This document shows, piece after piece, positions 29,294 to 63,476 of a stretch of DNA of 64,000 bases. How positions within the stretch are numbered: the stretch's first letter is position 1; every line of letters begins with the position of its first letter. Both the position numbers and the translations under genes were made by a program. The notes beneath the pieces were generated by a model that made no database searches, was not told the DNA's origin, and worked only from the letters and a program-made list of their open reading frames with translations. This DNA is from an uncultured Boseongicola sp. (lineage in GTDB: Bacteria > Actinomycetota > Acidimicrobiia > Spongiisociales > ZC4RG35): positions 5,842 to 69,841 of the forward strand of contig CAXMMT010000050.1 in the NCBI GenBank assembly GCA_964194555.1. The letters are read 5' to 3'.

Positions 29294-30244
29294 CTACGCC
29301 TTGCCAGCTGACCCATGTCGCAGAGTTGGGTCGGGAGGCTCCGTTCGCCCTCGTTTTGACAAATAGGCGTGCCAGACAATTCGGGCGGCCACTGCCCGGA
29401 TCGGTTTCCAGGACTCTGATACCAACTCCAGCTCGGCCTCGTCGGGAGTATGGGTCATCCCGAGGACTTCTCCCACCCCGACCTGCAATGCACGGTCACC
29501 TATCGGGTAGACGTCGGGGTGTGCCAACGCTGAGAGCAGATAGGCGTCAGCGGTCCAGGGACCGATGCCTCTGACGGAAAGGAGCTTGGACCTGGCGTTG
29601 TCTGCGGAGAGCGGGCCCAGGGACTCGATGTCGAGCGTCTCATCGGTCACTAGGTGGGCAAGGGCGTAGAGGTAGTCGGCCTTCTGACGGGTGATCCCGA
29701 TTGATCGCATCCCATCAACCCCGGTCCCGATGATGCTTGTGGCCGTCACCCCCACAGCCGTCACTTCGAGCCGTCGATACATGGCTGCCCCGGACTCCAG
29801 AGAGACCTGCTGCTCGAGAATGAGTAGTACCAGGCAACGGAGCCCCGGTTGACGGTGCCAGAACTCGGGCCGGCCAAACTTCTCGATGGCTTCGGCAATC
29901 GAGTTGTCCTCGTTGGACAGAAGGTCGGTCGCCTCGTCGAACGTCGCGGCGTCGAGCCGGTCCACCACAGCCAATGCTGTGCGAACGTCTATCGGGCCCA
30001 GCGCCCTGCTGTCGGCCTTTGTTGCTTCGGCATTGTCCGACATGACCCAGATGTGGTCCTGGCCTATCGGCTCCGGTGGCTCTGCCACTCTTTTGACCAT
30101 CCAGAAGTCTTCGCGCCTGGGATGAGGAAAGACGACCAGATCTCCTACCGACGGCCTCGATGCGTCTGTGGCGACGATCTCTTGGCCAGGTTCAAGGGCA
30201 GGCCGCATGGAGTCCTCGGCTACCTGGAAGCGTTTCATCGACAT
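29294..30244 (-). CDS. fusion protein: SodX-like S26 peptidase (Ni-SOD maturation protease) plus AlkA-like HhH-GPD DNA glycosylase domain
   Basis: The N-terminal ~95 aa carry S26 motifs (EDSMRPAL, MVKRV, SDNAEATKADSRALGPI). The C-terminal ~210 aa carry the HhH-GPD pattern (LLSVRGIGPWTADAYLL...YPIGDRAL). The gene is divergent from sodN. Confidence 0.75.
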   Translation of the reverse strand: MSMKRFQVAEDSMRPALEPGQEIVATDASRPSVGDLVVFPHPRREDFWMVKRVAEPPEPIGQDHIWVMSDNAEATKADSRALGPIDVRTALAVVDRLDAATFDEATDLLSNEDNSIAEAIEKFGRPEFWHRQPGLRCLVLLILEQQVSLESGAAMYRRLEVTAVGVTATSIIGTGVDGMRSIGITRQKADYLYALAHLVTDETLDIESLGPLSADNARSKLLSVRGIGPWTADAYLLSALAHPDVYPIGDRALQVGVGEVLGMTHTPDEAELELVSESWKPIRAVAARIVWHAYLSKRGRTEPPDPTLRHGSAGKA

Positions 30245-30295: not shown

Positions 30296-30703
30296 ATGCG
30301 CCAAGTGACTATCGCCCATGCCCACTGTGACCTCTATTGCGGTGTCTATGACCCGGCCCAGGCCAAGATCGAAGCCCTTTCGGTCATGAAGATCGCCCAG
30401 AAATACCAGGACTCAGACGATGAGGCTTTCAGGGCCCGCGCTCTCCAACTCAAAGAAGAGCGCGCCGAGGATGTGAAGCATCATCTGATGGTGCTCTGGG
30501 CGGACTTCTTCACCGCAGAACATCGTGAGGAGTTCTCGAATCTCGATGATCTCTTCTGGCGTGCGATTCACCAGGCAGGTGAGGCCAAGAAGTCGACTGA
30601 CCCGGCCGAGGGCCAAACGCTCATCGGGCTGATCGACGAGATTGGCGACATCTTCTGGCAGACGGAGAAGGCCAAAGGGATGGGCGTCTATCCGCCCACC
30701 TAG
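30296..30703 (+). CDS. sodN: nickel superoxide dismutase precursor
   Basis: A 9-aa propeptide MRQVTIAHA is followed by the Ni-hook HCDLYCGVYDP and the four-helix body (..VKHHLMVLWADFF..IFWQTEKA). Confidence 0.9.
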   Translation: MRQVTIAHAHCDLYCGVYDPAQAKIEALSVMKIAQKYQDSDDEAFRARALQLKEERAEDVKHHLMVLWADFFTAEHREEFSNLDDLFWRAIHQAGEAKKSTDPAEGQTLIGLIDEIGDIFWQTEKAKGMGVYPPT

Positions 30704-36147: not shown

Positions 36148-36990
36148 CTACCGCCGGGGGCGACCCCGCCATGTGGTGTAGACGTGTTTCATCATCGCCA
36201 GCGAGTAGGCGGGCAGAGTGTGCAGTTCTTCTTGATCTGGCGGCACATGAGGCTCATCTCGAGGCTCGGTGTCTCCGAGATTTCGCACAAGGATATCCAC
36301 TGAGTTCGATTCCTCGTCTTCGTCTTCGGCTGGGATGTCCTCATCAAGCTCATCTATCTCCGGCTCAGAAACCGGATCGACGACAATCGGAAGCCGTATC
36401 GCAGAGGTCTTGGCCTCGACGAGCTCGCTCCGCATCTCCGATACTCTCTCTCTGAGGAAAACTGTCTCGGTTTCGGCCTTGGCCGCTCTCTCCCGGGCCT
36501 CTGCGAGCTGCTGACCCGCCTCATGGAGATTTCCCAGTTGTATCAGCATCTTGTTCCACGCGTCGAGAGGGACCAGCATCGTCCCCTCGGGGATTTCCGG
36601 CTCCGCTGTGTCTTCTTCGATGGCTTCCGGTTCTCGTGGCTCTGGCTCCCGTTCTGGCTCCCGCTCTTGTGTGTCGATGATCGGTGGGGGCGTGGGCGTC
36701 ACAAGTTTGCGTCCGAGCCTTTCCGCACGCTGCTGGATTCCTTTGAGCGACACCATCCGCAACTGACCGACGGGCGTCTCCTCCAGATAGGTGGGTACGG
36801 AGTCGCGTCGAGCCCACTTGCGAAGTGTGGAGACAGGAATTCCGGTGAGATCGGTAGCTTCGCGCAACGTGATCCAGTCGACGTCGTCGCGATCGACGTT
36901 GTCGGACCGCTGCTCATGCCGTCCCTTTGTGGCCTTTGATGAGCGAAGTGCCTCAGATTCCCAGAGAAAGGCGGTGTCGCTGTCAGCCAT
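36148..36990 (-). CDS. HTH (MerR/excisionase-like) DNA-binding protein with acidic low-complexity and coiled-coil regions
   Basis: HTH at ITLREATDLTGIPVSTLRKWARRD, then an EREPEREPEPREPE repeat and a predicted coiled coil. ATG 36990 was chosen because the longer ORF reads through repeat copy A. Confidence 0.55.
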   Translation of the reverse strand: MADSDTAFLWESEALRSSKATKGRHEQRSDNVDRDDVDWITLREATDLTGIPVSTLRKWARRDSVPTYLEETPVGQLRMVSLKGIQQRAERLGRKLVTPTPPPIIDTQEREPEREPEPREPEAIEEDTAEPEIPEGTMLVPLDAWNKMLIQLGNLHEAGQQLAEARERAAKAETETVFLRERVSEMRSELVEAKTSAIRLPIVVDPVSEPEIDELDEDIPAEDEDEESNSVDILVRNLGDTEPRDEPHVPPDQEELHTLPAYSLAMMKHVYTTWRGRPRR

Positions 36991-37015
36991 GGCCCGGATC
37001 ATACGGGTAGCTCCC

Positions 37016-37181
37016 TGGTGGTGTGTCGCCCAAATAATCACCGCATCTCTCCGGCCCTTGACGCCCCTGGCTTCATCCTCCGCCTCAACGCATCTCGCCG
37101 ATGCGCCTTCGTTGTGCGTCCTGGCCAGATGACGCCGAGGACTCGGACATATGCTGGCGCTATTTCCACGACACACCACTA
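37016..37181 (+). repeat. structured intergenic repeat, copy A (divergent copy)
   Basis: About three quarters identical to copies B and C. Terminal arms tggtggtgtgtcg / cgacacaccacta pair, and the apical hairpin is cgcatc-tcgcc-gatgcg. Confidence 0.8.
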
Positions 37182-37214
37182 GGTTGGCGGCCGAGGAGGC
37201 CCCTGCAGCATCTG

Positions 37215-37826
37215 ATGACATCTTCGAGAGCCCAAGCAATGCCGTCAGAGGAGGAGGTGCGTTCCCTCGTCGAGCGAATTGTCGATGGTGTCGTTGATCA
37301 CGAAACACAGTTCTTGCCTGAGGATTCTCTCGACCATACAGACTCCCAAGCCCCGGTCTTCGATCCCCTCGGCATCATCGCCGTTGGAGCCGACCACGGC
37401 GGCTATCCGCTCAAGGAGCGGATTTCGTTCAGACTGAAGGAAGCCGGCTGGGAGGTCGTCGACTGTGGAACCGACTCCAAGGAGGCGGTTGACTACCCGG
37501 AGTATGCCCTCGCCGTGGCCCGGAAGGTTGCTGATGGCGAATGCCGGTGGGGGATCATGATCGATGGCGCCGGCATCGGGTCTTCGATGGTTGCCAACAA
37601 AGTGGCCGGTGTTCGGGCAGCGCTTTGTTACGACGTTTCCTCGGCTCGCAACAGTCGTGAGCACAATCACGCCAACGTCCTAACGCTTGGGGCGGGTCTC
37701 ATCGGGGACGGGTTGGCGTGGCAGATCGTGGAGGAGTGGTTGTCCACTGAGTGGGCAGGGGGTCGTCATGCCCGTCGGGTTGCCATGATCGACGCGCTGG
37801 ATCAGCAATACTCCAGACCTGAATGA
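37215..37826 (+). CDS. rpiB: RpiB/LacA/LacB-family sugar-phosphate isomerase with N-terminal extension (BMC cargo candidate)
   Basis: Core motifs IAVGADHGGYPLKE.., ..MIDGAGIGSSMVANK.., ..NSREHNHANVLTLGA. A ~45-aa extension contains EEEVRSLVERIVDGVV. The start is ATG 37215 or ATG 37239. Confidence 0.85.
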   Translation: MTSSRAQAMPSEEEVRSLVERIVDGVVDHETQFLPEDSLDHTDSQAPVFDPLGIIAVGADHGGYPLKERISFRLKEAGWEVVDCGTDSKEAVDYPEYALAVARKVADGECRWGIMIDGAGIGSSMVANKVAGVRAALCYDVSSARNSREHNHANVLTLGAGLIGDGLAWQIVEEWLSTEWAGGRHARRVAMIDALDQQYSRPE

Positions 37827-37838
37827 AGAAGTCGTGTC

Positions 37839-38672
37839 ATGAATCGTGAGGCTCTGGTCGAAGCCATCACCCGAGAGGTCCTCTCGGCGCTCTCCACTCG
37901 ATTCGATATGGCCGAGACGGGAGACAAGGTTCGGGAGGTCGTCGCCAATGGCGCCGACCGGGTCGCCTTCCACGGTGAGGCGGCGGATGTCCCGCTCGAT
38001 GTGGCGCAGTACATCGATCACACCCTCCTCGCGGCTGACGCAACGGCTGAAGACATCGACGTTCTCTGTTCCGAAGCCGAGCAGTACGGGTTCGCCTCGG
38101 TCTGCATCAATCCCACATGGGTGAAACGGGCCGCCAAGAACTTGCGAGGAACCAGGGTGCCCGTGTGCACGGTCATCGGTTTTCCACTTGGCGCCACCAC
38201 CACCGAAATCAAGGCCACCGAGGCAAGAAAGGCTCTCCGCGACGGCGCCCGTGAGATCGATATGGTCATAAACATCGGAGCCCTCAAGTCGGGTGACCAC
38301 GAACTGGTATACAACGACATCGCCAAGGTTGTGGACGCGTCTCGCGAGACGGGGGCGATTTGCAAGGTGATCCTGGAGACAGCCCTCCTCACAGATGAGG
38401 AAAAAGTGATTGCTTCGGCGCTGGCGAAGAGAGCAAAGGCGGACTTCGTGAAAACCTCAACCGGGTTCGGGCCCGGCGGAGCAACGGTCTATGACGTAGC
38501 CCTGATGCGCGAGACCGTGGGACCCGACATGGGCATCAAGGCGTCCGGTGGTGTTAGAACTGCCGATGACGCCGAAGACATGATCGCGGCCGGCGCCACC
38601 AGGATCGGTGCTTCCGCGGGTGTGCAAATTGTTGGCGGATCAGATGGAGGAGATAGTGGCGAAAGGTATTGA
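37839..38672 (+). CDS. deoC: deoxyribose-phosphate aldolase with ~55-aa N-terminal extension (BMC cargo candidate)
   Basis: DeoC core (IDHTLL..., IDMVINIG, Schiff-base Lys in [17 protein letters not shown]). The N-terminal [16 protein letters not shown] helix is absent from ordinary DeoC. Confidence 0.9.
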
Positions 38673-39285
38673 GCTCAGGTCCTACGCGTTTCTGGACAGC
38701 TTGCAGCCGCAATATGCGGCGTTTCTGGGAACCGTTGCCCAAGGATTTCTTCCTCTGGCAGGGGATGCCTCGCTCTGGGTCGAGGTGGCACCCGGAATCG
38801 AGATCAATCGTCTGACCGACGTTGCCCTCAAGTCCACAGGCGTCAAACCGGGTCTTCAGATCATCGAGCGGTATTTCGGCGTGCTCGAAGTCCACTCTCC
38901 GGATCAGGCCGAGGTGCGAGCCGCAGGTGAGGCCATACTCGAAGGCATCGAGCACTCAGAGGATGACCGTATGAAGCCTCGCATTCTCAGCTCGCAAATC
39001 ATCCGGCGGATCGATGATCATCACGCCCAGCTCATCAACAGGACGAGACACGGAGAGATGATCATCCCGGGTCAGACTCTCTATGTCCTCGAGTGTGAAC
39101 CGGCGGCCTACGCATCATTGGCTGCCAACGAAGCTGAGAAGGCTGCCGAGATAAACGTGCTCGAGGTGCGAAGCTTCGGGTCGATGGGTCGCATCTACCT
39201 CGGTGGCGAGGAGCAAGACATCGATGTGGGATGGCAAGCGGCTGTGGCCGCGTTGGAAGGTCTGACGGGAAGAGAATCTGAATAA
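38644..39285 (+). CDS. BMC-T shell protein, permuted tandem BMC domains (CsoS1D / Haliangium T2-T3-like, double-stacking type)
   Basis: ..[58 protein letters not shown] closely resembles characterised permuted BMC-T proteins. The start is ATG 38644 or GTG 38656, overlapping the deoC end. Confidence 0.85.
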
Positions 39286-39324
39286 TCAAAGTTCCGATTG
39301 AGAACGAAGGAAAGGAGGAGCTTC

Positions 39325-39627
39325 ATGGCTGAAGCTCTGGGAATGATCGAGGCGCGCAGCTACCCGGCGATGGTGGAGGCGGCCGATGCCATGGTCAAGG
39401 CGGCCAAGGTCGAGTTGGTGAGCATGGAAAAGACAGGCGGGGGCTACATAACTGCCCTTGTCCGTGGTGATGTTGCGGCGGTGAAGGCCGCGGTCGACGC
39501 GGGTGTTCGCGGTGCCGAGAAGGTCGGCGAAGTGACCGCTACCCATGTCATTGCCCGTCCGCATGTCAACGTGGATCTCGTGTTGCCTCTGGGCCGTCAG
39601 GATCAGGCGCAGGACGATCTCGGCTGA
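39325..39627 (+). CDS. BMC-H hexameric shell protein (PduA/EutM-like, PF00936 type)
   Basis: [30 protein letters not shown]...[17 protein letters not shown]...HVIARPH. A strong RBS (aaaggaggag) precedes ATG 39325. Confidence 0.92.
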
Positions 39628-39652
39628 CCAACTCGAGAAACAGGAGAGACCC

Positions 39653-39961
39653 ATGCATCTAGGCAGGGTCGCTGGAACCCTTGTAGCCAGCCGTAAGGAA
39701 GCCCTTTTGTCGGGGATGAAGTTCCTTGTTGTGAGACAGGTCAACGAGGCAAACCAGGAGACAGGGACATATGTGGTGGCTGCCGACGCTGTCGGTGCCG
39801 GGTTGGGCGAAGTGGTCTTATACGCCTCAGGCAGTTCGGCGCGTCAGACGGAGATGACCAAGGATCGTCCATGCGACGCCGTGATCATGGCGATCGTGGA
39901 CACCTGGGACATCGGTGGCGAAGTCAGGTACCACAAGGGTGAGGAGGAAGCCGCTGGATAG
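39653..39961 (+). CDS. BMC-P pentameric vertex protein (EutN/CcmL family), paralogue 1
   Basis: [15 protein letters not shown]...[24 protein letters not shown]...[12 protein letters not shown] aggagag. Confidence 0.9.
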
Positions 39962-41423
39962 GTCGAAGCTCAGCGACAGCGAAGTCCGCTCGATAATCGA
40001 TCGTGTGAAGAACCGGGTTGCCGCGGCCGAGTTCGCCGACCGGCCCGGTCCGACGCTACGCGCCAGTGATCAGCTTGCGATTTCGGAGGTTGAACTCGGC
40101 GACGGAATCCACCTCACCATCGACGAGGCTGTGCGATCTGCCCGCCGGGCTTTCGAGGCTTACCGCGATATGGGCCTCGAAGCAAGGAAGACCATTGTCG
40201 AAGCCATGCGCGCAGCCATGCTCAAGGAGGGAGAGCGTCTTGCCTACATGGCGGTGGAGGAGACCGGGATCGGTCGGGCCGAAGACAAAGTCGTGAAGAA
40301 CAGGCTGGTGACAACCAAAACCCCGGGTCCAGAGGACCTCGAGCCTCATGTCGTCACCGGCGATGCCGGAATGGTCGTGACTGAGTACGCGCCATACGGC
40401 GTGATCGGCTCGATTACTCCCACCACGAATCCCACGTCGACCATCATCAACAACTCGATCGCAATGGTGTCCGCGGGCAACGCCGTGGTCTTCAACGTCC
40501 ACCCGAACGCAAGTCTTGTCTCAGTCGAAAACGTAAAACTGCTGAATCGGGCGATCGTTGCGGCCGGGGGACCGGCCGATTTGATCACCGCAACCCCACA
40601 GCCGACTCTCGAATCAGCGCGTGAGGTCATGCATCACCCTGACATCCGGGTTCTCCTTGTCACAGGAGGGCCGGGGGTGGTCAAGGAAGCGCTGAAGACC
40701 ACCAAGAAAGTGATCGCCGCCGGTCCGGGCAATCCGCCCTCGGTCGTGGATCAAACGGCTGACGTGGAGGCCGCGGGACGTAACGTCGTTCGTGGTGCCT
40801 CGTTCGACAACAACGTCATCTGCACCGATGAGAAGACGACCATCGTGGTGGACTCTGTTGCCGATCGACTGGTTCAGTCGATGGTTGCCAACGGGGCCTA
40901 CCGGCTCAAAGAGCACGAACTGAAGCGGCTGGAGCGGGTCATCTTCAAGGAGATGGGGCCACCCAACAAACCAGGAGTGATCAACCAGGCACTCATCGGG
41001 AAGAGCGCGGCCGCGATTCTGTCCGAGATCGGTATCACGGTCGACGATGATGTTCGACTGGTGGTGGCCGAGGTGCGGAGTGAGCACAATCTGGTTTGGA
41101 CCGAGCAGATGATGCCGGTGATGCCCGTTGTCAGGGTGCAAAACGTCGACGACGCCATCGATCTGGCAGTGCGCTCAGAGCATGGCTTTCGTCACACGGC
41201 GTCGATTCACAGCACCAATATCGACACCATCACCCGGATGGCACGAGCCATGAACTGCAGCATGTTCGTGGCCAACGGCCCCAACTTCAGCGGTCTGGGA
41301 GAGGGCGGCGAGGGGTTCACGTCTTTCTCCATTGCCAGTCCGACCGGGGAAGGACTGACCCGACCTCGTCACTTCTCTCGGGCCCGAAGGATCAGCGTCG
41401 TGGGAGCGCTCCGCATTGTCTGA
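39915..41423 (+). CDS. CoA-acylating aldehyde dehydrogenase (PduP/EutE-like) with N-terminal encapsulation-peptide-like helix
   Basis: ALDH fold with catalytic Cys in [11 protein letters not shown]. The N-terminal [16 protein letters not shown] helix is followed by a linker. The start is uncertain (GTG 39915 or GTG 39939) and overlaps the BMC-P1 end. Confidence 0.9.
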
Positions 41424-42006
41424 TCCGGCCATCGCCCTGCTCGAGTTCGACTCGATCAGCGCCGGAATCGTGTCCGGCGATGCCATGGTCAAGTCCTCCC
41501 CTCTGGGATCTATCTATGCGGGGACGGTCCATCCAGGGAAGTATCTGGTCCTGGTCAGCGGTGACACCGCAAGTGTCGAGATCGCTCTGTCAACAGGGAC
41601 CGATATCGGTCAGGGTCATATCACCGACTCGGTGTTTCTCCCCGACATACATCCGGACGTGACATCCGCGATTGTTGACGGAGCCAAACGGGCAACCCTC
41701 GGTGAGGGCGCATTGGGGATCGTGGAGACTTCCTCAGTTTCCGCTGTTATCGACGCTGCCGACGCCGGCGTCAAGGCGGCCCATGTGGTCTTGGGGGCGG
41801 TCCGCCTCGCCGACGGTCTGGGTGGCAAGGGATATGTCTTCTTCTCCGGGACGGTTGCCGATGTGGATGCTGCGGTTGAAGCGGCGGTGAGCCGTGTTGA
41901 ACCCCATGGTTTTCTGATTCGCTCCGATGTGATCGCCCAGTTGCATGAGGAGATGGCCGAGAACCTCCGAAGTCAGCTTCGATTTTTGAAGCGAGTCGGG
42001 AGCTGA
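41416..42006 (+). CDS. BMC-T shell protein, tandem BMC domains (PduT-like)
   Basis: Two BMC domains (IALLEFDSISAGIVSGDAMVK..., ALGIVETSSVSAVIDAADAGVKAA...). It aligns by eye to PduT. TTG start overlaps the AldDH stop. Confidence 0.85.
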   Translation: MSDPAIALLEFDSISAGIVSGDAMVKSSPLGSIYAGTVHPGKYLVLVSGDTASVEIALSTGTDIGQGHITDSVFLPDIHPDVTSAIVDGAKRATLGEGALGIVETSSVSAVIDAADAGVKAAHVVLGAVRLADGLGGKGYVFFSGTVADVDAAVEAAVSRVEPHGFLIRSDVIAQLHEEMAENLRSQLRFLKRVGS

Positions 42007-42007
42007 C

Positions 42008-42286
42008 ATGCAGTTGGCTCGCGTCCTCGGAAGTGTCGTTGCGACCGAGAAAGTGGAAGGTCTCGAAGGCGTCCGCTTCCTGGTCATACAACCCTTGGAT
42101 AAGACCCTGGAACCGTCCGGTGGAACGGTCGTGGCCGCCGACGCTGTCGAAATGGCCGGGCCGGGGGAGTTGGTCTATTTCGTCAGCTCACGAGAGGCGG
42201 CCGAGGCGTTGCCGGAGCGGTTCGTCCCCGTGGATCACGCCATTGTCGGGATTGTCGACGATGTGCACCTCGGAGCAGACGCGTGA
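42008..42286 (+). CDS. BMC-P pentameric vertex protein (EutN/CcmL family), paralogue 2
   Basis: MQLARVLGSVVATEK...VAADAVEMAGPGELVYFVSSREA...AIVGIVDDV. Confidence 0.9.
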   Translation: MQLARVLGSVVATEKVEGLEGVRFLVIQPLDKTLEPSGGTVVAADAVEMAGPGELVYFVSSREAAEALPERFVPVDHAIVGIVDDVHLGADA

Positions 42287-42570
42287 AGGTGGGCCGGGTT
42301 GTCGGAACTGTTGTGTCCACCGTCAACATCCCGCTCCTCGATGGTCATCGATTGCTGGTCTGCGACATTCAAGACGTCTCTGGCGAGGCATCCGGCTACA
42401 CGATCGCCATCGACGTGGTCGATGCCGGGGTGGGTGAGACAGTGCTCATCCTGGACGAGGGCACTTCTGCACGCCAGATCCTTGGCCTCGATTGGGGGGC
42501 GATCCGTGCCGTGGTCGTTGGTGTTGTCGACGAGTTGATGGTTGACGGCGAGCTTCGCGAAGTGAGCTAA
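42283..42570 (+). CDS. BMC-P pentameric vertex protein (EutN/CcmL family), paralogue 3
   Basis: MKVGRVVGTVVSTV...AIDVVDAGVGETVLILDEGTSARQ...AVVVGVVDEL. Its start overlaps the stop of paralogue 2. Confidence 0.9.
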   Translation: MKVGRVVGTVVSTVNIPLLDGHRLLVCDIQDVSGEASGYTIAIDVVDAGVGETVLILDEGTSARQILGLDWGAIRAVVVGVVDELMVDGELREVS

Positions 42571-42581
42571 TGCTCGTGGCA

Positions 42582-43130
42582 CTAGTCCTTGGGTGGGGTG
42601 TCCCAGTCTTGGACGTCGCTCCCTTTCTCGCGGGCCAGGATGTCGAGGGCGGCGACGGCGCCCGCCCCCGCGGAGATGATGGCCTGACTCCGCGACGGTC
42701 TGACCGAGCGGCCGACCACGTAGGCCTTGTCGATTGACGACCGGTTGTCACGGTCTACGTCGATGGCACCGGTCTTGTCCACATCGACGCCAAGGGACAG
42801 GGCCAACTCCGGGTTCTTGCCCTCGGTGAGGATCAGATAGTCGGCGACGTGCTCTCCGCTGTCGGTCTTCACGTTGAAATCTTCTCCCGCGGCGACCGAA
42901 CGCACCTCTTCATCGAGGAGAGACGCCCCTACCGCCAAAACCTGGCCTCGTGCCACCTGCTGGAACTCGGTCCCTGCGATCTCCGGCAGTCCCAGGTAGT
43001 TGTAGAGATGTGCATAGTTCATGGCCGTCTTGTCGGTTCCGAACACGATCACGTCCTGGTAGTTCTTCGCCAGGAACAGCGCGGCAGACAGCCCGCCCGG
43101 TCCATCTCCAACGATGATCACTCTCGCCAA
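42582..43130 (-). CDS. short FAD-binding oxidoreductase (thioredoxin-reductase-like FAD domain without the NADPH domain)
   Basis: N-terminal GxGxxG motif (VIIVGDGPGGLSAALFLA) and a C-terminal TrxR-like segment (..AYVVGRS...QAIISAGAGAVAALDI). At only 182 aa it has no CxxC and no second dinucleotide fold. Confidence 0.7.
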   Translation of the reverse strand: MARVIIVGDGPGGLSAALFLAKNYQDVIVFGTDKTAMNYAHLYNYLGLPEIAGTEFQQVARGQVLAVGASLLDEEVRSVAAGEDFNVKTDSGEHVADYLILTEGKNPELALSLGVDVDKTGAIDVDRDNRSSIDKAYVVGRSVRPSRSQAIISAGAGAVAALDILAREKGSDVQDWDTPPKD

Positions 43131-43180: not shown

Positions 43181-44086
43181 ATGCCGGCGGCATCCAGCCA
43201 GGATGGGTGTGTGGAGACCAGGTCTGTTCCGATCAAGGGTCCTCTCGATCTCAGGGGAACTCTGCAGCCGCTGCATGGGAGGTTCGCCGACGATGGTTGG
43301 TGGCTGTCTGCCCGGACTCCGGAAGGGTCTGGATCGCTGCGGATCAGACGGACACGTCAGGAGATGATCGGGGAGGCCTGGGGAGAAGGTTCCGGTTGGC
43401 TGCTGGACAGACTCGGGGCGATCTCTGGGCTCGACGATGATCCATCCGGGTTTGAGACCGACGACCCGGTTGTCTCTGATCTCCACCGTCGTCATTCAGG
43501 TGAGAGGTTCGGACGGACCGATCTGGTATTTGATTCGCTCGTTGTCGCAATCTGTGGCCAGAAAGTGACAGGTGGCGAGGCCGCAGCAGCTATGCGTGGC
43601 TTGCACCGGAAGTTCTCCGAGTCTGCACCCGGCCCCAATGAGCGATTGAGACTGCCCCCCGACCCGGAGCGGATGGCCGAGGCGCCCTATTGGGTGTACC
43701 ACGAGCTCCATCTGGAGAAACGCCGTGCCGACGTCCTGAGGCAAGTGGCTGCCAACCACGAGAAGATCGAAGCTCTGCCCGGGGTTGATCCCGTGGATGC
43801 CGCCAGGTTGCTCGAATCCTTCGACGGCGTTGGGGAGTGGAGCGTGGCCAAGACCCTCGAAGTGTCTCATGGTGACTCCGACCAGGTGGCGGTCGGGGAC
43901 TTCCACTTCAAGCACATCGTCGTGTATCACTTGACCGGTCGGGATCGGGGCACAGACGATGAGATGTTGGAGCTTCTGGAGCCGTTTCGGCCAAATCGAG
44001 GGCGTGTGATCAGACTCCTTCATCATCTCGGTCACGAGCCCAAATTCGGCCCACGGATGAGCCGCCGTGACATCACCGGGATGTAG
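43181..44086 (+). CDS. DNA-3-methyladenine glycosylase II family (AlkA-like, HhH-GPD) protein
   Basis: HhH-GPD pattern ..LESFDGVGEWSVAKTLEVSHGDSDQVAVGDFHF.. with an N-terminal AlkA-like domain. Confidence 0.75.
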   Translation: MPAASSQDGCVETRSVPIKGPLDLRGTLQPLHGRFADDGWWLSARTPEGSGSLRIRRTRQEMIGEAWGEGSGWLLDRLGAISGLDDDPSGFETDDPVVSDLHRRHSGERFGRTDLVFDSLVVAICGQKVTGGEAAAAMRGLHRKFSESAPGPNERLRLPPDPERMAEAPYWVYHELHLEKRRADVLRQVAANHEKIEALPGVDPVDAARLLESFDGVGEWSVAKTLEVSHGDSDQVAVGDFHFKHIVVYHLTGRDRGTDDEMLELLEPFRPNRGRVIRLLHHLGHEPKFGPRMSRRDITGM

Positions 44087-44462: not shown

Positions 44463-45380
44463 CTATCTTTCCAGCCACACGACGATCAGGTCGCCAACCC
44501 AGTCCGGGTCCCTCATGTTGTTGTGAAGGGCACCCTCGACTTCTTCCAACAACGACTCCGATCCAGAGTCGGCGAGTGCCAGGTGAAAGTCGGTGGCGAA
44601 CCGGCTGTCGACGATCCCATCGCTACCGCCGTACATGATCAGACTGACGAGAAGGGTGTTTTCATCGGTGAGTCCTTGTGGGTTGCCGGCGAGCCAGACA
44701 TCGGGCTCGGCGCTGGGCCCGGCACCGAAGAACGGCAGCATGATGATGCCGAGACGGTTGACATCGTATGGACCGGCCAGCCCTACGAATCTGTCAGGTA
44801 GCCCTGTGCCCGGCACCGGGCAGTCCCCGGCGTATTCATTACCGGTGAGCGCCACAATCGCTGATATGTGGCCACCGGCCGAGTGCCCGATCAACGCCAC
44901 TGTCCCGTCCGAATCCGGATGAGCTGCGGCATATCTGACTGCACAGGCCACATCATCGACAGCCTGAGGGAACCCGGGGCTCTCGTTGGAGAGCTTGTAT
45001 GGGGTGTTCACCGTCAAGAACCCTTCATCGGTCAAGAAGGCCGCCAGCGAGTGCATGATCGAGACGTCTCCACCGATCCAGCCGCCACCGTGGACCAGTA
45101 CCACCGCAGGGAACGGTCCTTCTCCGTTCGGGATCTTCACGTCGGCCCCGATGTCGGGCAGTTCCGGGCGTGTTGTCGTTGTCGGTGGCAACGTGGTTGT
45201 TGTCGTGGGCGGCAGTGTTGTCGTTGTCGTCGAGGACGTGCTGGTGGTCGACTCAGAAGTGGAAGACGACACCGCTAGCTCAGTGGTTGTGACGACTTCC
45301 CCGCTCCCGGGCGAGCACGCCGCCAGGATGATGGCCGTTGCTAAGAAAGAAGCGAAGCGGCTGCCGCGTCTACGTGCCAT
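44463..45380 (-). CDS. secreted alpha/beta hydrolase (esterase/lipase-like) lipoprotein
   Basis: Lipobox (ILAAC), a Thr/Pro-rich linker, oxyanion HGGGW and the nucleophile elbow GHSAGG. Confidence 0.8.
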   Translation of the reverse strand: MARRRGSRFASFLATAIILAACSPGSGEVVTTTELAVSSSTSESTTSTSSTTTTTLPPTTTTTLPPTTTTRPELPDIGADVKIPNGEGPFPAVVLVHGGGWIGGDVSIMHSLAAFLTDEGFLTVNTPYKLSNESPGFPQAVDDVACAVRYAAAHPDSDGTVALIGHSAGGHISAIVALTGNEYAGDCPVPGTGLPDRFVGLAGPYDVNRLGIIMLPFFGAGPSAEPDVWLAGNPQGLTDENTLLVSLIMYGGSDGIVDSRFATDFHLALADSGSESLLEEVEGALHNNMRDPDWVGDLIVVWLER

Positions 45381-46018
45381 TCAACCTTTGCCTGACCTTC
45401 GCCGAGTCTACCCGCGGGTGTTTCCCCGGCTAGGGAGTCCCTGAGAGCGCCTGATTTTTTCTCGCCAACCACCAGGACCATCAGAAGCTGGGCCCTCCAC
45501 AGCATCGGATAAGTAGCTGTGATTCGCGTCTCCTGTTGCTGTGGAACGTGCTGGGCAACGAACCACCGGCTCTCCTCGTCGAGTGCAGGAGTGCCGGGGA
45601 AAAGCGATGCGGTGTGACCGTCGTCACCCAATCCGAGAAGTATGAGATCCGGCCTGCCGTTGTGGAGGAGTGCCTTGATCGTGGACTCATAGAGGGTGGC
45701 GGAGTCGTTCGGCTCGATCAGCTCACTCCATACCGGTCGATGAAATCTGGCTTCAACGTGGTCCATCAACGTTTCGGCCGCCATCCGCCCGTTACACCTT
45801 TCGTGGTCGTGTGGAACCCAACGCTCGTCCGATAGCCAGGCGTCTACGCGACTCCAATCGATGTTCTGATCACGAAGGGCCGCATAGGTGGTCCCGGGTG
45901 TCGAACCACCGGCCAACCCGAGCGTAAAGCCTTCTTTTGCATCTTGAATCTCGCTCGCGACGCGCTGCGCCGCGGCCACGGCTGTCGCCTGAGCTGTCTC
46001 GTGAACCACCAACTTCAT
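45341..46018 (-). CDS. pgl: 6-phosphogluconolactonase
   Basis: ..LGLAGGSTP.., ..SDERWVP.., ..LLGLGDDGHTASLFPG.. ATG 46018 was chosen because the longer ORF enters repeat copy B. Confidence 0.85.
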   Translation of the reverse strand: MKLVVHETAQATAVAAAQRVASEIQDAKEGFTLGLAGGSTPGTTYAALRDQNIDWSRVDAWLSDERWVPHDHERCNGRMAAETLMDHVEARFHRPVWSELIEPNDSATLYESTIKALLHNGRPDLILLGLGDDGHTASLFPGTPALDEESRWFVAQHVPQQQETRITATYPMLWRAQLLMVLVVGEKKSGALRDSLAGETPAGRLGEGQAKVEWHVDAAAASLLS

Positions 46019-46049
46019 CGCACGGACGGTACCTGCCTGCTCTAATGCT

Positions 46050-46208
46050 CTGTCGCCCAAATAGCTACGCGGTCTCACCGGCCCTCGACGCCCCCGGCGG
46101 CGTCCTCCGCCTTGACGCAGCTAAGGCCGCGCCTTCGTTGTGCGTCCTTGCCAGATGACGCCGATGACTCGGTGACACCGCGGCATCAATTGAGCGACAG
46201 ACCACTAG
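46050..46208 (+). repeat. structured intergenic repeat, copy B
   Basis: Differs from copy C at only 4 positions over ~155 nt. The 5' terminal arm is replaced, and the 3' end ...gcgacagaccactag is intact. Confidence 0.85.
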
Positions 46209-46217
46209 ATTTGAGTC

Positions 46218-46880
46218 ATGGCCGACTCAGTCACCATCACCTGGACCGGTGGAGAGGTGTCCGGGCGTCTCACCGGTGACGGACCCAACGGGATACTTCT
46301 CGCGCATGGAGCAGGGGTAGACCAGGACCATCCGTTCATGGTCCTGCTCCGCGATGGCCTTGCGGGCGAAGCCCACACCGTGATGACCTTCAACTACCCC
46401 TACGCCGAGCGCGGATCGAGAAGCCCCGATCGCGCCGAGAAACTGATCGCGTGTCATCGAGGGGCAGCGGAATTCCTGCGTTCCCGGGTTGAAACCCTTT
46501 TTCTTGCTGGAAGGTCGATGGGTGGACGAATCGCGACGATGCTGGTGGCCGAGGGGGGCGAGGCCGCCGGAATAGCCCTTTACGCCTACCCGCTGCATCC
46601 GTCCGGCAAGCCGGAAAAGCTCCGCATCGACCATTTGCCGAATGTCACCGTGCCGCTCCTCTTCTTCCTCGGAACCAGGGATGCGTTGTCGCGAATGGAG
46701 CTGTTCAACCAGCACATCCGTCCGCTGCCGAATGCCGAGGTCGAGGTTCTAGAAAATGCAGGTCACTCTCCGAAGGGAGGTGGTTGGACGTTTGAGTCCA
46801 CGGTCGAGCGGCTCGTCGATGGGACCTCGGAATGGATTACCCGGATCTCGTCTGGCAGTAGCAACCCGGAGAGACCATAA
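46218..46880 (+). CDS. alpha/beta hydrolase family protein (dienelactone-hydrolase/KANL3-like)
   Basis: 220-aa protein with a nucleophile elbow (GRSMGG) and an ..HGAG.. N-terminal loop. Confidence 0.7.
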   Translation: MADSVTITWTGGEVSGRLTGDGPNGILLAHGAGVDQDHPFMVLLRDGLAGEAHTVMTFNYPYAERGSRSPDRAEKLIACHRGAAEFLRSRVETLFLAGRSMGGRIATMLVAEGGEAAGIALYAYPLHPSGKPEKLRIDHLPNVTVPLLFFLGTRDALSRMELFNQHIRPLPNAEVEVLENAGHSPKGGGWTFESTVERLVDGTSEWITRISSGSSNPERP

Positions 46881-57689: not shown

Positions 57690-57856
57690 CTAGTGGTCCG
57701 TCGCCCAAATAGCTACGCGGTCTCACCGGCCCTCGACGCCCCTGGCGGCGTCCTCCGCCTCGACGCAGCTAAGGCTGCGCCTTCGTTGTGTGTCCTTGCC
57801 AGATGACGCCGATGACTCGGTGACACCGCGGCATCAATTGAGCGACAGACCACTAG
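57690..57856 (+). repeat. structured intergenic repeat, copy C (most complete copy)
   Basis: The terminal arms ctagtggtccgtcgc / gcgacagaccactag pair at 14 of 15 positions, and the inner arms gcggtctcaccg / cggtgacaccgc at 11 of 12. The apical hairpin is cgcagc-taag-gctgcg. Confidence 0.85.
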
Positions 57857-57891
57857 CATCTGCCAAACTTCCTCCTGTAAAGGATCTTCTC

Positions 57892-63389: not shown

Positions 63390-63476
63390 GCCCGGGTGGC
63401 GGAACGGTAGACGCGAGGGGCTTAAACCCCCTTGAGCCGAATACGGCTCGTGTGGGTTCGAAACCCACCCCGGGCA
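63390..63476 (+). tRNA. tRNA-Leu (anticodon UAA), class II with long variable arm, CCA not encoded
   Basis: Hand-folded cloverleaf: acceptor GCCCGGG/CCCGGGC, anticodon stem AGGGG/CCCCU with loop CUUAAAC, variable stem GAGCCG/CGGCUC, and T arm GUGGG-UUCGAAA-CCCAC. Confidence 0.9.

Follow-up and report, generated by a model that had tools for sequence, protein, structure and literature searches.

A nine-gene microcompartment locus of the sugar-phosphate-utilisation type in an Acidimicrobiia bacterium

Introduction

Bacterial microcompartments (BMCs) of the sugar-phosphate-utilisation (SPU) class are among the most widespread bacterial organelles, yet studies of them in living cells are lacking. 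The class received its name in 2014 on the basis of eight loci, and by 2021 it comprised more than 280 loci from 26 phyla, divided into seven subtypes (Sutter et al. 2021, Nat Commun 12:3809). Here we analyse a cluster of nine genes located at positions 37215–42570 of a 64,000-nt stretch of DNA (hereafter the window; contig CAXMMT010000050.1, assembly GCA_964194555.1) from an uncultured Acidimicrobiia bacterium, and compare it with the members of this class and with other described shells.

Two SPU subtypes are of particular relevance to the locus. In the written description of SPU3, the only enzymes are an aldehyde dehydrogenase (AldDh) and members of the pf01791 and pf02502 families, and N-terminal encapsulation peptides are present (Sutter 2021, Supplementary Data 2). 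The SPU3 shell is described as consisting of one BMC-H, a triplet of BMC-P, a CcmP-like BMC-Tdp, and a BMC-Ts that lacks both a PduS partner and the pore cysteine, with Actinobacteria included among the hosts (Sutter 2021, Supplementary Data 2). For SPU6, the deoxyribose-5-phosphate aldolase (DERA) of Chloroflexi bacterium GWB2_54_36 was purified and found to cleave deoxyribose-5-phosphate in vitro; the RpiB-like protein had negligible ribose-5-phosphate isomerase activity and formed a complex with DERA, which left DERA kinetics unchanged (Dwyer, Sutter, Kerfeld 2024, Commun Biol 7:1562). The same study reported that catalytic Cys66 is replaced by Asp in the RpiB-like proteins of all SPU loci, and proposed that SPU loci without a phosphotransacylase (PTAC) release acetyl-CoA via the Tdp pore (Dwyer 2024, Commun Biol 7:1562).

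Our analysis suggests, with a probability that we put at roughly 70%, that the locus encodes an SPU3-type catabolic metabolosome in which deoxyribose-5-phosphate would be cleaved and the resulting acetaldehyde converted to acetyl-CoA within the shell. What the sequence shows is the set of genes, the intactness of the catalytic residues and the presence of peptides of the targeting type; from these we infer the substrate, the direction of the pathway, encapsulation and the route taken by cofactors.

Gene content and class assignment

Families were assigned by Pfam and NCBIfam profile searches of the open reading frames (ORFs) of the window. Nine ORFs on the + strand, all with intact frames and strong family matches, occupy positions 37215–42570 in the order RpiB-DERA-Tdp-H-P-AldDH-Ts-P-P, with AldDH denoting a CoA-acylating aldehyde dehydrogenase. 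Start positions were adjusted with the help of relatives and of independent gene calls made on a close Joint Genome Institute (JGI) contig; this placed the start of the RpiB-like gene at 37215 (or 37239), of Tdp at 38656 (GTG), of BMC-H at 39325, of the first BMC-P at 39653 and of the aldehyde dehydrogenase at 39915. Successive genes are either separated by gaps of 12, 39, 25 and 1 nt or overlap by 17 (or 29), 47, 8 and 4 nt. Terminator-like sites were at chance level (6 seen versus 5.0 expected), and the downstream neighbour, which lies 11 nt past the last operon stop, is convergent (42582–43130, − strand). Given these tight or overlapping junctions, the chance-level terminators and the convergent next gene, the nine genes have the predicted anatomy of a single operon. 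A sigma-70 promoter scan gave no match.

These data agree with an initial annotation of the same DNA, made by a model from the letters alone, which had described nine co-directional, tightly packed or overlapping genes and a shell inventory of one H, two T and three P proteins. The ORFs were found where it had placed them, with gaps of 1–39 nt and overlaps of 4–47 nt, and every ORF matched the family claimed for it in Pfam or NCBIfam. The profile check that it had suggested for the shell ORFs likewise returned PF00936 on BMC-H and Ts, PF03319 on the three BMC-P and the CcmP model on Tdp.

When compared feature by feature with its written description, SPU3 is the subtype that the locus fits, and on this basis we assign the locus to SPU3, a form that is already catalogued and widespread. 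The aldehyde dehydrogenase, DERA and RpiB make up the full enzyme set, with RpiB before DERA, and N-terminal encapsulation peptides are found on AldDh and DERA. The shell comprises one BMC-H, three BMC-P, a CcmP-like Tdp and a Ts with neither a PduS partner nor a pore cysteine, and the host belongs to the Actinobacteria. There are also differences. RpiB and DERA are encoded by separate genes here, whereas they are fused in 12–20 SPU3 loci, and a conserved, divergent MerR/HTH_17-like gene that accompanies this locus is not mentioned in the part of the SPU3 description available to us.

The locus shares with SPU6 the placing of RpiB ahead of DERA, a core of three enzymes with the aldehyde dehydrogenase among them, the N-terminal extension of DERA, an RpiB-like protein with an N-terminal peptide and linker and the Cys66-to-Asp replacement, a BMC-P triplet, a single BMC-H, a Tdp and the lack of a PTAC. 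By contrast, the aldehyde dehydrogenase of SPU6 has a C-terminal peptide and sits on another branch of the AldDH tree, while the SPU6 Tdp falls in the ‘blue’ clade, not among CcmP-like proteins, and the SPU6 locus lacks a Ts. The SPU6 regulator is of the GntR/UTRA type, which is also the type found upstream of the operon in two relatives of the locus (L076 and L077, see below).

The assignment made by the initial annotation, to the SPU class with implied chemistry leading from a deoxy-sugar phosphate to acetyl-CoA, fits both Sutter 2021 and Dwyer 2024. Its view of the novelty of the locus was overstated, given the more than 280 SPU loci catalogued across 26 phyla and seven subtypes, and the fit to an SPU3 description that includes Actinobacteria. 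Its statement that the substrate, physiological role and regulation of the class had not been established experimentally was too broad in one respect, as DERA cleavage of deoxyribose-5-phosphate and the near-inactivity of the RpiB-like protein on ribose-5-phosphate have been shown in vitro for SPU6 (Dwyer 2024); it still holds for physiological role and regulation, and applies as well to shell assembly in vivo. This locus leaves the present view of the SPU class unchanged. What is new beside the known class is a conserved divergent candidate regulator, a MITE-like insertion that looks specific to this genome, and a conserved histidine in the pore of Ts.

Enzymes of the predicted core

DERA, the signature enzyme of the locus (37839–38672, + strand), matched TIGR00126 at 288 bits (cut-off 117). 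Its catalytic domain begins at residue 55 and was aligned over its full length with solved DERAs (best score 276 bits). D141, K176 and K205, which form the Asp/Lys/Lys set of class I aldolases, were present in every covering relative, with 70–72 of 73 rows covered and the remainder gaps. The N-terminal extension of ~54 aa is conserved and opens with an amphipathic helix, whereas solved DERAs lack such an extension. The ratio of non-synonymous to synonymous substitution rates (dN/dS) was 0.045. The features that mark a DERA as a member of an SPU system, namely a position beside shell genes, an intact Asp/Lys/Lys set and an N-terminal extension, are thus all present.

The CoA-acylating aldehyde dehydrogenase (39915–41423, + strand) is of the PduP/EutE type, with a score of 615 bits on NF011927 (cut-off 403). 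Its best solved match, the PduP of R. palustris (5jfl), scored 433 bits in an alignment that pairs the catalytic Cys residues, and C303 was invariant in 81/81 sequences. A conserved N-terminal amphipathic segment resembles an encapsulation peptide, so that all three enzymes (RpiB-like, DERA and AldDH) carry a conserved N-terminal amphipathic extension of this type.

In the RpiB-like protein (37215–37826, + strand, alternative start 37239; PF02502, 180 bits), the putative encapsulation peptide is EEEVRSLVERIVDGVV, which has the highest helical hydrophobic moment within the protein. The peptide is conserved and the Pro/Ala-rich linker that follows it is variable, a combination of N-terminal helix and linker that corresponds to the classical layout of an encapsulation peptide. 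The initial annotation had called the first gene an isomerase. Its membership of the RpiB family holds; the name fits less well, as the catalytic Cys66 is replaced by Asp and Thr68 by Ala, such that the ICGTG of E. coli RpiB (1nn4) reads IDGAG (motif DGAG). The two replacements, D117 and A119 in this protein, were invariant in 68/68 relatives, as were the equivalents of D9/H10, H99/N100 and R133/R137, and dN/dS for the gene was ~0.1.

A canonical second rpiB was found in 18 relatives, where it is convergent with the BMC operon and lies a few genes downstream of it. This gene keeps CGSG and has no N-terminal extension, which argues that the Asp variant is specific to the organelle-linked paralogue. 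The loci with a canonical rpiB include L037, L044–L047, L056, L058, L061, L063, L064, L068, L069, L071 and L073–L075. In 14/18 of these relatives, the canonical rpiB is preceded by a gene for 6-phosphogluconolactonase (pgl). Of this rpiB-pgl pair, the window keeps only pgl (45341–46078), with three other genes intercalated.

Because deoxyribose-5-phosphate has no 2-OH, the RpiB-like protein cannot isomerise it. The protein also lacks the canonical Cys66/Thr68 catalytic pair. Most likely it serves to organise the enzyme core, as a partner that binds DERA and bears a peptide, and it may have a further activity on sugar phosphates.

An alternative keeps the organelle as described and makes the RpiB-like protein an active enzyme of changed specificity, with the Asp as its catalytic base, which would add a step to the pathway or admit a different entry substrate. 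It might turn glyceraldehyde-3-phosphate into dihydroxyacetone phosphate, pulling the unfavourable DERA cleavage, or act on another sugar phosphate. The equilibrium of DERA favours synthesis, so that isomerisation of glyceraldehyde-3-phosphate would be chemically sensible. The site residues other than Cys66 and Thr68, along with the Asp and Ala that replace these two, are all invariant in a gene under purifying selection, and the RpiB family as listed in NCBIfam spans enzymes for C4 to C6 sugar phosphates. In addition, a gene for triose-phosphate isomerase is found chiefly in loci of SPU1 and SPU4, the RpiB-like gene is absent from 11/29 SPU4 loci, and an alternative substrate for RpiB was left open (Dwyer 2024). 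However, the SPU6 homologue showed negligible activity on ribose-5-phosphate and its complex was without effect on DERA kinetics, no RpiB with the Asp replacement has been reported to be active, and conservation of the site could instead reflect the binding of a regulatory ligand or the interface with DERA. We therefore regard an active RpiB-like enzyme as possible though unlikely; it is nevertheless a more serious rival to the favoured model than is a reversal of the pathway, which is considered below.

Shell proteins

Of the six shell proteins, three are divergent BMC-P, and the others are a BMC-H, a CcmP-like BMC-Tdp and a PduT-like BMC-Ts. The main hexameric protein of the shell, BMC-H (39325–39627, + strand), matched PF00936 at 97 bits. 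Its closest solved structure was HO-5815 of Haliangium (137 bits), and the motifs KAAK, TGGGY and ARPH were kept in every covering relative, with a dN/dS of 0.02. A strong ribosome-binding site, AAGGAGGAG, lies upstream of the gene.

The Tdp, a tandem permuted double-stacking trimer (38656–39285, + strand), scored 339.6 bits on the NF053796 CcmP model, just below the curated cut-off of 340. Its start at 38656 is backed by a conserved V/M position and by a gene call of 209 aa in a relative. Matches to solved structures were led by CcmP (4ht5, 284 bits), followed by T3 and T2 of Haliangium (245 and 240 bits, respectively) and CsoS1D (190 bits). The gating Glu-Arg pair (E74/R75) was present in all 74 covering relatives, and this protein is presumed to form the gated large pore of the shell. 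The likeness to CcmP of beta-carboxysomes is therefore considerable, in model and structure scores and in the gating pair. A beta-carboxysome was nevertheless rejected, as the scanned ORFs of the window include no RuBisCO, CcmM/CcmN or carbonic anhydrase and the host belongs to the Acidimicrobiia. With none of these carboxysome partners in the window, the Tdp would be a CcmP-like shell protein of a metabolosome and not a carboxysome component.

The Ts, a tandem-domain trimer (41416–42006, + strand; 2 x PF00936, 112 bits), aligned with PduT (3pac) at 120 bits, with TICPGK of PduT set against TVHPGK, and with T1 of Haliangium at only 78 bits. The cysteine that holds the Fe-S cluster in the pore of PduT is lacking, the position of Cys38 being taken by His39. 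Across relatives this position was His in 75/79 and Gln in 4/79. Three such His residues would line the pore of a trimer.

The three BMC-P paralogues, pentameric vertex proteins, all matched PF03319 (EutN/CcmL): BMC-P1 (39653–39961) at 98 bits, BMC-P2 (42008–42286) at 88 bits, and BMC-P3, encoded by the last gene of the operon (42283–42570), at 68 bits, all on the + strand. P1 and P2 are 38% identical, and P3 is 34–37% identical to P1 and P2. Identities this low would be compatible with an origin in three different major BMC-P clades, as expected of the triplet in SPU loci. The closest solved structure to BMC-P1 was the Haliangium BMC-P in 5v74 (110 bits).

The shell thus resembles that of Haliangium ochraceum (HO, PDB 5V74), as had been suggested initially: HO proteins are the solved structures closest to BMC-H and BMC-P1, HO T2/T3 come second only to CcmP for Tdp (240–245 bits), and the inventories are similar, with a single H, three BMC-P proteins, and both Ts and Tdp. 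The kinship of HO and SPU shells was also remarked on by Sutter 2021 (Nat Commun 12:3809). The HO locus differs in having two Tdp paralogues (three BMC-T in all) and in lacking DERA and RpiB in its main locus, and the Ts described here is nearer to PduT than to HO T1. An HO-type BMC was rejected in view of the presence of DERA and RpiB at the head of the operon and the single Tdp. Comparison with propanediol- and ethanolamine-utilisation (PDU/EUT) microcompartments points to a shared principle, in which an aldehyde is made and then oxidised to an acyl-CoA within the shell, and the aldehyde dehydrogenase matches R. palustris PduP. The signature enzyme is a different one, however, and the locus encodes neither a phosphotransacylase nor an alcohol dehydrogenase that could recycle cofactors internally; its PduT-like protein is without the Fe-S cysteine, and a Tdp is present.

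The compact gene set, together with a shell close to the structurally solved shell of Haliangium, makes this minimal system of three enzymes and six shell proteins a reasonable candidate for reconstitution.

Predicted pathway

In the pathway that we propose, deoxyribose-5-phosphate from the breakdown of DNA or deoxynucleosides would enter via the pore of BMC-H or the gated pore of Tdp. DERA would cleave it into glyceraldehyde-3-phosphate plus acetaldehyde, and the shell would keep in the acetaldehyde, which is volatile and toxic, for conversion by the CoA-acylating dehydrogenase, with NAD+, to acetyl-CoA (and NADH). Glyceraldehyde-3-phosphate would exit to central metabolism. Acetyl-CoA/CoA and NADH/NAD+ would be traded with the cytosol, for which Tdp, with its large gated pore, is the most plausible route.

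The trade in cofactors follows from the gene content. In a Pfam scan of the flanking ORFs of at least ~150 aa throughout the 64-kb window, no phosphotransacylase (PduL/Pta), alcohol dehydrogenase or PduS was found, and among the same ORFs there was no triose-phosphate isomerase or class II aldolase. The initial annotation had called the operon complete, which holds for the nine intact genes; the missing phosphotransacylase, alcohol dehydrogenase and PduS mean that it does not extend to cofactor recycling. The locus, as predicted from its genes, is a three-enzyme, six-shell-protein unit without encoded cofactor recycling, so that exchange of acetyl-CoA/CoA and NADH/NAD+ with the cytosol would be required. 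The locus therefore sharpens three questions: how NAD+ and CoA are recycled without an encoded enzyme, what the Asp-variant RpiB does, and which regulator controls the operon.

The genes around the operon bear on the direction of the pathway. In the reverse direction, acetyl-CoA would be reduced to acetaldehyde as a sink for NADH, and DERA and RpiB would condense aldehydes to sugar phosphates as a store of carbon. Such a model has been proposed for SPU-type loci of Atribacteria (Nobu 2016). The DERA reaction is reversible, and the lack of a PTAC and an alcohol dehydrogenase means that the locus does not hold the full canonical catabolic core. However, the Acidimicrobiia host has genes for an F-type ATP synthase, a Ni superoxide dismutase and a phenylacetate oxygenase in the window, which indicates that it is probably a respiring aerobe with no need of a fermentative NADH sink. 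Moreover, RpiB cannot act on deoxyribose-5-phosphate, and the SPU RpiB-like protein was inactive on ribose-5-phosphate. Reversal is thus very unlikely, and the aerobic-type neighbours (F-type ATP synthase, Ni superoxide dismutase) favour the oxidative, catabolic direction of the SPU3-type metabolosome.

Several points weigh against the SPU3-type catabolic metabolosome as drawn here. The scanned ORFs of the window include no deo, deoxyribose, deoxynucleoside or phosphopentomutase genes that could supply its substrate. The SPU3 label follows the written description and not the hidden Markov models or colour clades of its authors. SPU biochemistry comes only from the SPU6 DERA of a Chloroflexi metagenome-assembled genome (MAG), which is of another subtype with an aldehyde dehydrogenase of another clade, and none of it was obtained in vivo (Dwyer 2024). 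Exchange of cofactors through Tdp is itself a hypothesis. Apart from the two replacements, the active-site residues of the RpiB-like protein are strictly conserved, more so than a pure scaffold needs, which hints at an unrecognised catalytic step. Finally, every family match of the candidate regulator falls below significance, with Pfam HTH_17 and MerR both under their cut-offs.

Conservation and selection

Relatives of the locus were collected by a scan with the aldehyde dehydrogenase, taking one genome per species, which yielded 549 confirmed relatives, of which the best 80 were compared. These best 80 of 549 were almost all Acidimicrobiia MAGs, with 68–94% identity in the aldehyde dehydrogenase. 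When all window proteins were searched by tblastn, the nine-gene order was complete in 65/80 related loci; the other 15/80 were contiguous subsets ended by contig ends, and there was no exception to the order. All nine genes had dN/dS values of 0.02–0.15 against two close relatives (L003 and L005), as expected under purifying selection. For Ts, dN/dS reached 0.18 in the comparison with L014, a more distant relative for which dS is close to saturated.

An order kept in all 80 related loci, combined with low dN/dS, indicates that the nine-gene cluster is an old, maintained trait of Acidimicrobiia, and neither a chance arrangement nor a relic. The insertion of a MITE-like element into this genome's promoter spacer would be compatible with an inherited remnant that no longer builds a functional organelle. 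Against this are the nine intact frames, the conserved catalytic, pore and interface residues, the dN/dS of 0.02–0.15 against close relatives and the order kept across 80 related species, and we consider loss of function to be extremely improbable. The compact SPU3 form appears instead to be conserved and vertically inherited across many Acidimicrobiia, a group that is abundant in soils, sediments and sponges.

Candidate regulator and promoter spacer

Upstream of the operon and divergent from it lies a gene for a protein of 284 aa (36148–37002, − strand) with sub-threshold HTH_17/MerR matches. The protein consists of a MerR/HTH_17-like winged helix (~aa 41–100), a disordered Pro/Glu linker, a conserved long helix (aa 146–201) and a conserved basic C-terminus. 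In an AlphaFold2 model, the HTH domain and a 55-residue helix had pLDDT values above 90, with disordered linkers between them. The best Foldseek matches were DNA-binding domains of the MerR family (NmlR, CarH, BldC and SoxR), all weak (E of at least 0.04), and NCBIfam and PDB sequence searches with the protein gave no match. Its 1316 homologues are all named hypothetical or MerR-like. The gene has a dN/dS of ~0.19 and was found upstream of and divergent from the operon in 59/65 related loci with enough flank.

In relatives without the 284-aa gene, the same slot holds other regulators: a GntR/UTRA regulator in two (L076, 6382–7191; L077, 5219–6001) and a pair of extracytoplasmic function (ECF) sigma and anti-sigma factors in another two (L048, 5986–7190; L065, 5901–7114), while a further locus, L051, which is labelled Ilumatobacter, has only short matches to such a sigma and anti-sigma pair (1160–1514). 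Regulator types thus appear to have been swapped at one position upstream of the RpiB-like gene. It is chiefly this swap which makes the divergent MerR/HTH_17-like gene a probable local regulator of the operon.

A bolder reading takes in both the RpiB-like protein and the candidate regulator. The invariant Asp/Ala RpiB would have a new activity, for example as a triose- or tetrose-phosphate isomerase driving DERA by using up glyceraldehyde-3-phosphate within the shell, and the MerR/HTH_17-like protein, with its long coiled-coil helix, would represent a new family of BMC regulators that sense a product of DNA breakdown. This conjunction seems to us doubtful. If true, it would mean that the SPU pathway as now drawn is incomplete.

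Regulator and operon are separated by 212 bp here, versus ~45–95 bp in relatives, and the excess is made up by an element of ~165 nt (37018–37182, + strand) with terminal inverted repeats, CTAGTGGTCTGTCGC...GCGACAGACCACTAG. The element is missing from the same spacer in close relatives. Three intergenic copies, ~83% alike and in the same orientation, were identified in the window (37018–37182, ~46058–46222 and ~57698–57862). It folds as a long hairpin, with an RNA fold z-score of −5.3. Rfam has no family for the element and revealed no riboswitch or known RNA upstream of the operon, its sole match in the window being a tRNA (63390–63476). The element therefore looks like an insertion of the miniature inverted-repeat transposable element (MITE) kind that is specific to this genome.

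Flanking genes

The flanks of the window contain genes for ATP synthase, serine hydroxymethyltransferase (SHMT), paa and arg functions, an oxoacid:ferredoxin oxidoreductase, methionyl-tRNA synthetase (MetRS), Ni superoxide dismutase (Ni-SOD), glycerol kinase, Mfd, enolase and similar proteins. The convergent 182-aa thioredoxin-reductase-like gene immediately downstream of the operon (42582–43130) was considered as a partner for NAD recycling and rejected, as it lies on the other strand, is cut short compared with thioredoxin reductase (TrxR), and occurs in only 8/80 related loci. It appears to be a fragment of a pyridine-nucleotide-disulphide oxidoreductase (68 bits against a TrxR cut-off of 343), the eight loci being mostly closer relatives, and probably lies outside the BMC system.

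Between 34770 and 36137 are genes for a 310-aa protein with no family match and a 140-aa DoxX/MauE-like membrane protein. Neither gene occurs in the JGI relative (L081), which is syntenic in other respects. In that relative a lipoprotein gene abuts the regulator gene, so that the segment would represent a small insertion in the lineage of the window. Further upstream, the gene for the Ni-type superoxide dismutase (30296–30703, + strand; N-terminus HCDLYCGVYD, with PF09055 matched by the L081 orthologue) adjoins that for a 316-aa protein (29294–30244, − strand). The latter combines an apparent S26 signal-peptidase-like N-terminus (a faint match) with an HhH-GPD glycosylase domain, an unusual fusion if real. 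Together with a gene at 43181–44086 (+ strand), it is one of two AlkA-like HhH-GPD base-excision glycosylase genes within 14 kb either side of the locus; their proximity to a locus presumed to act on a DNA sugar is probably a coincidence.

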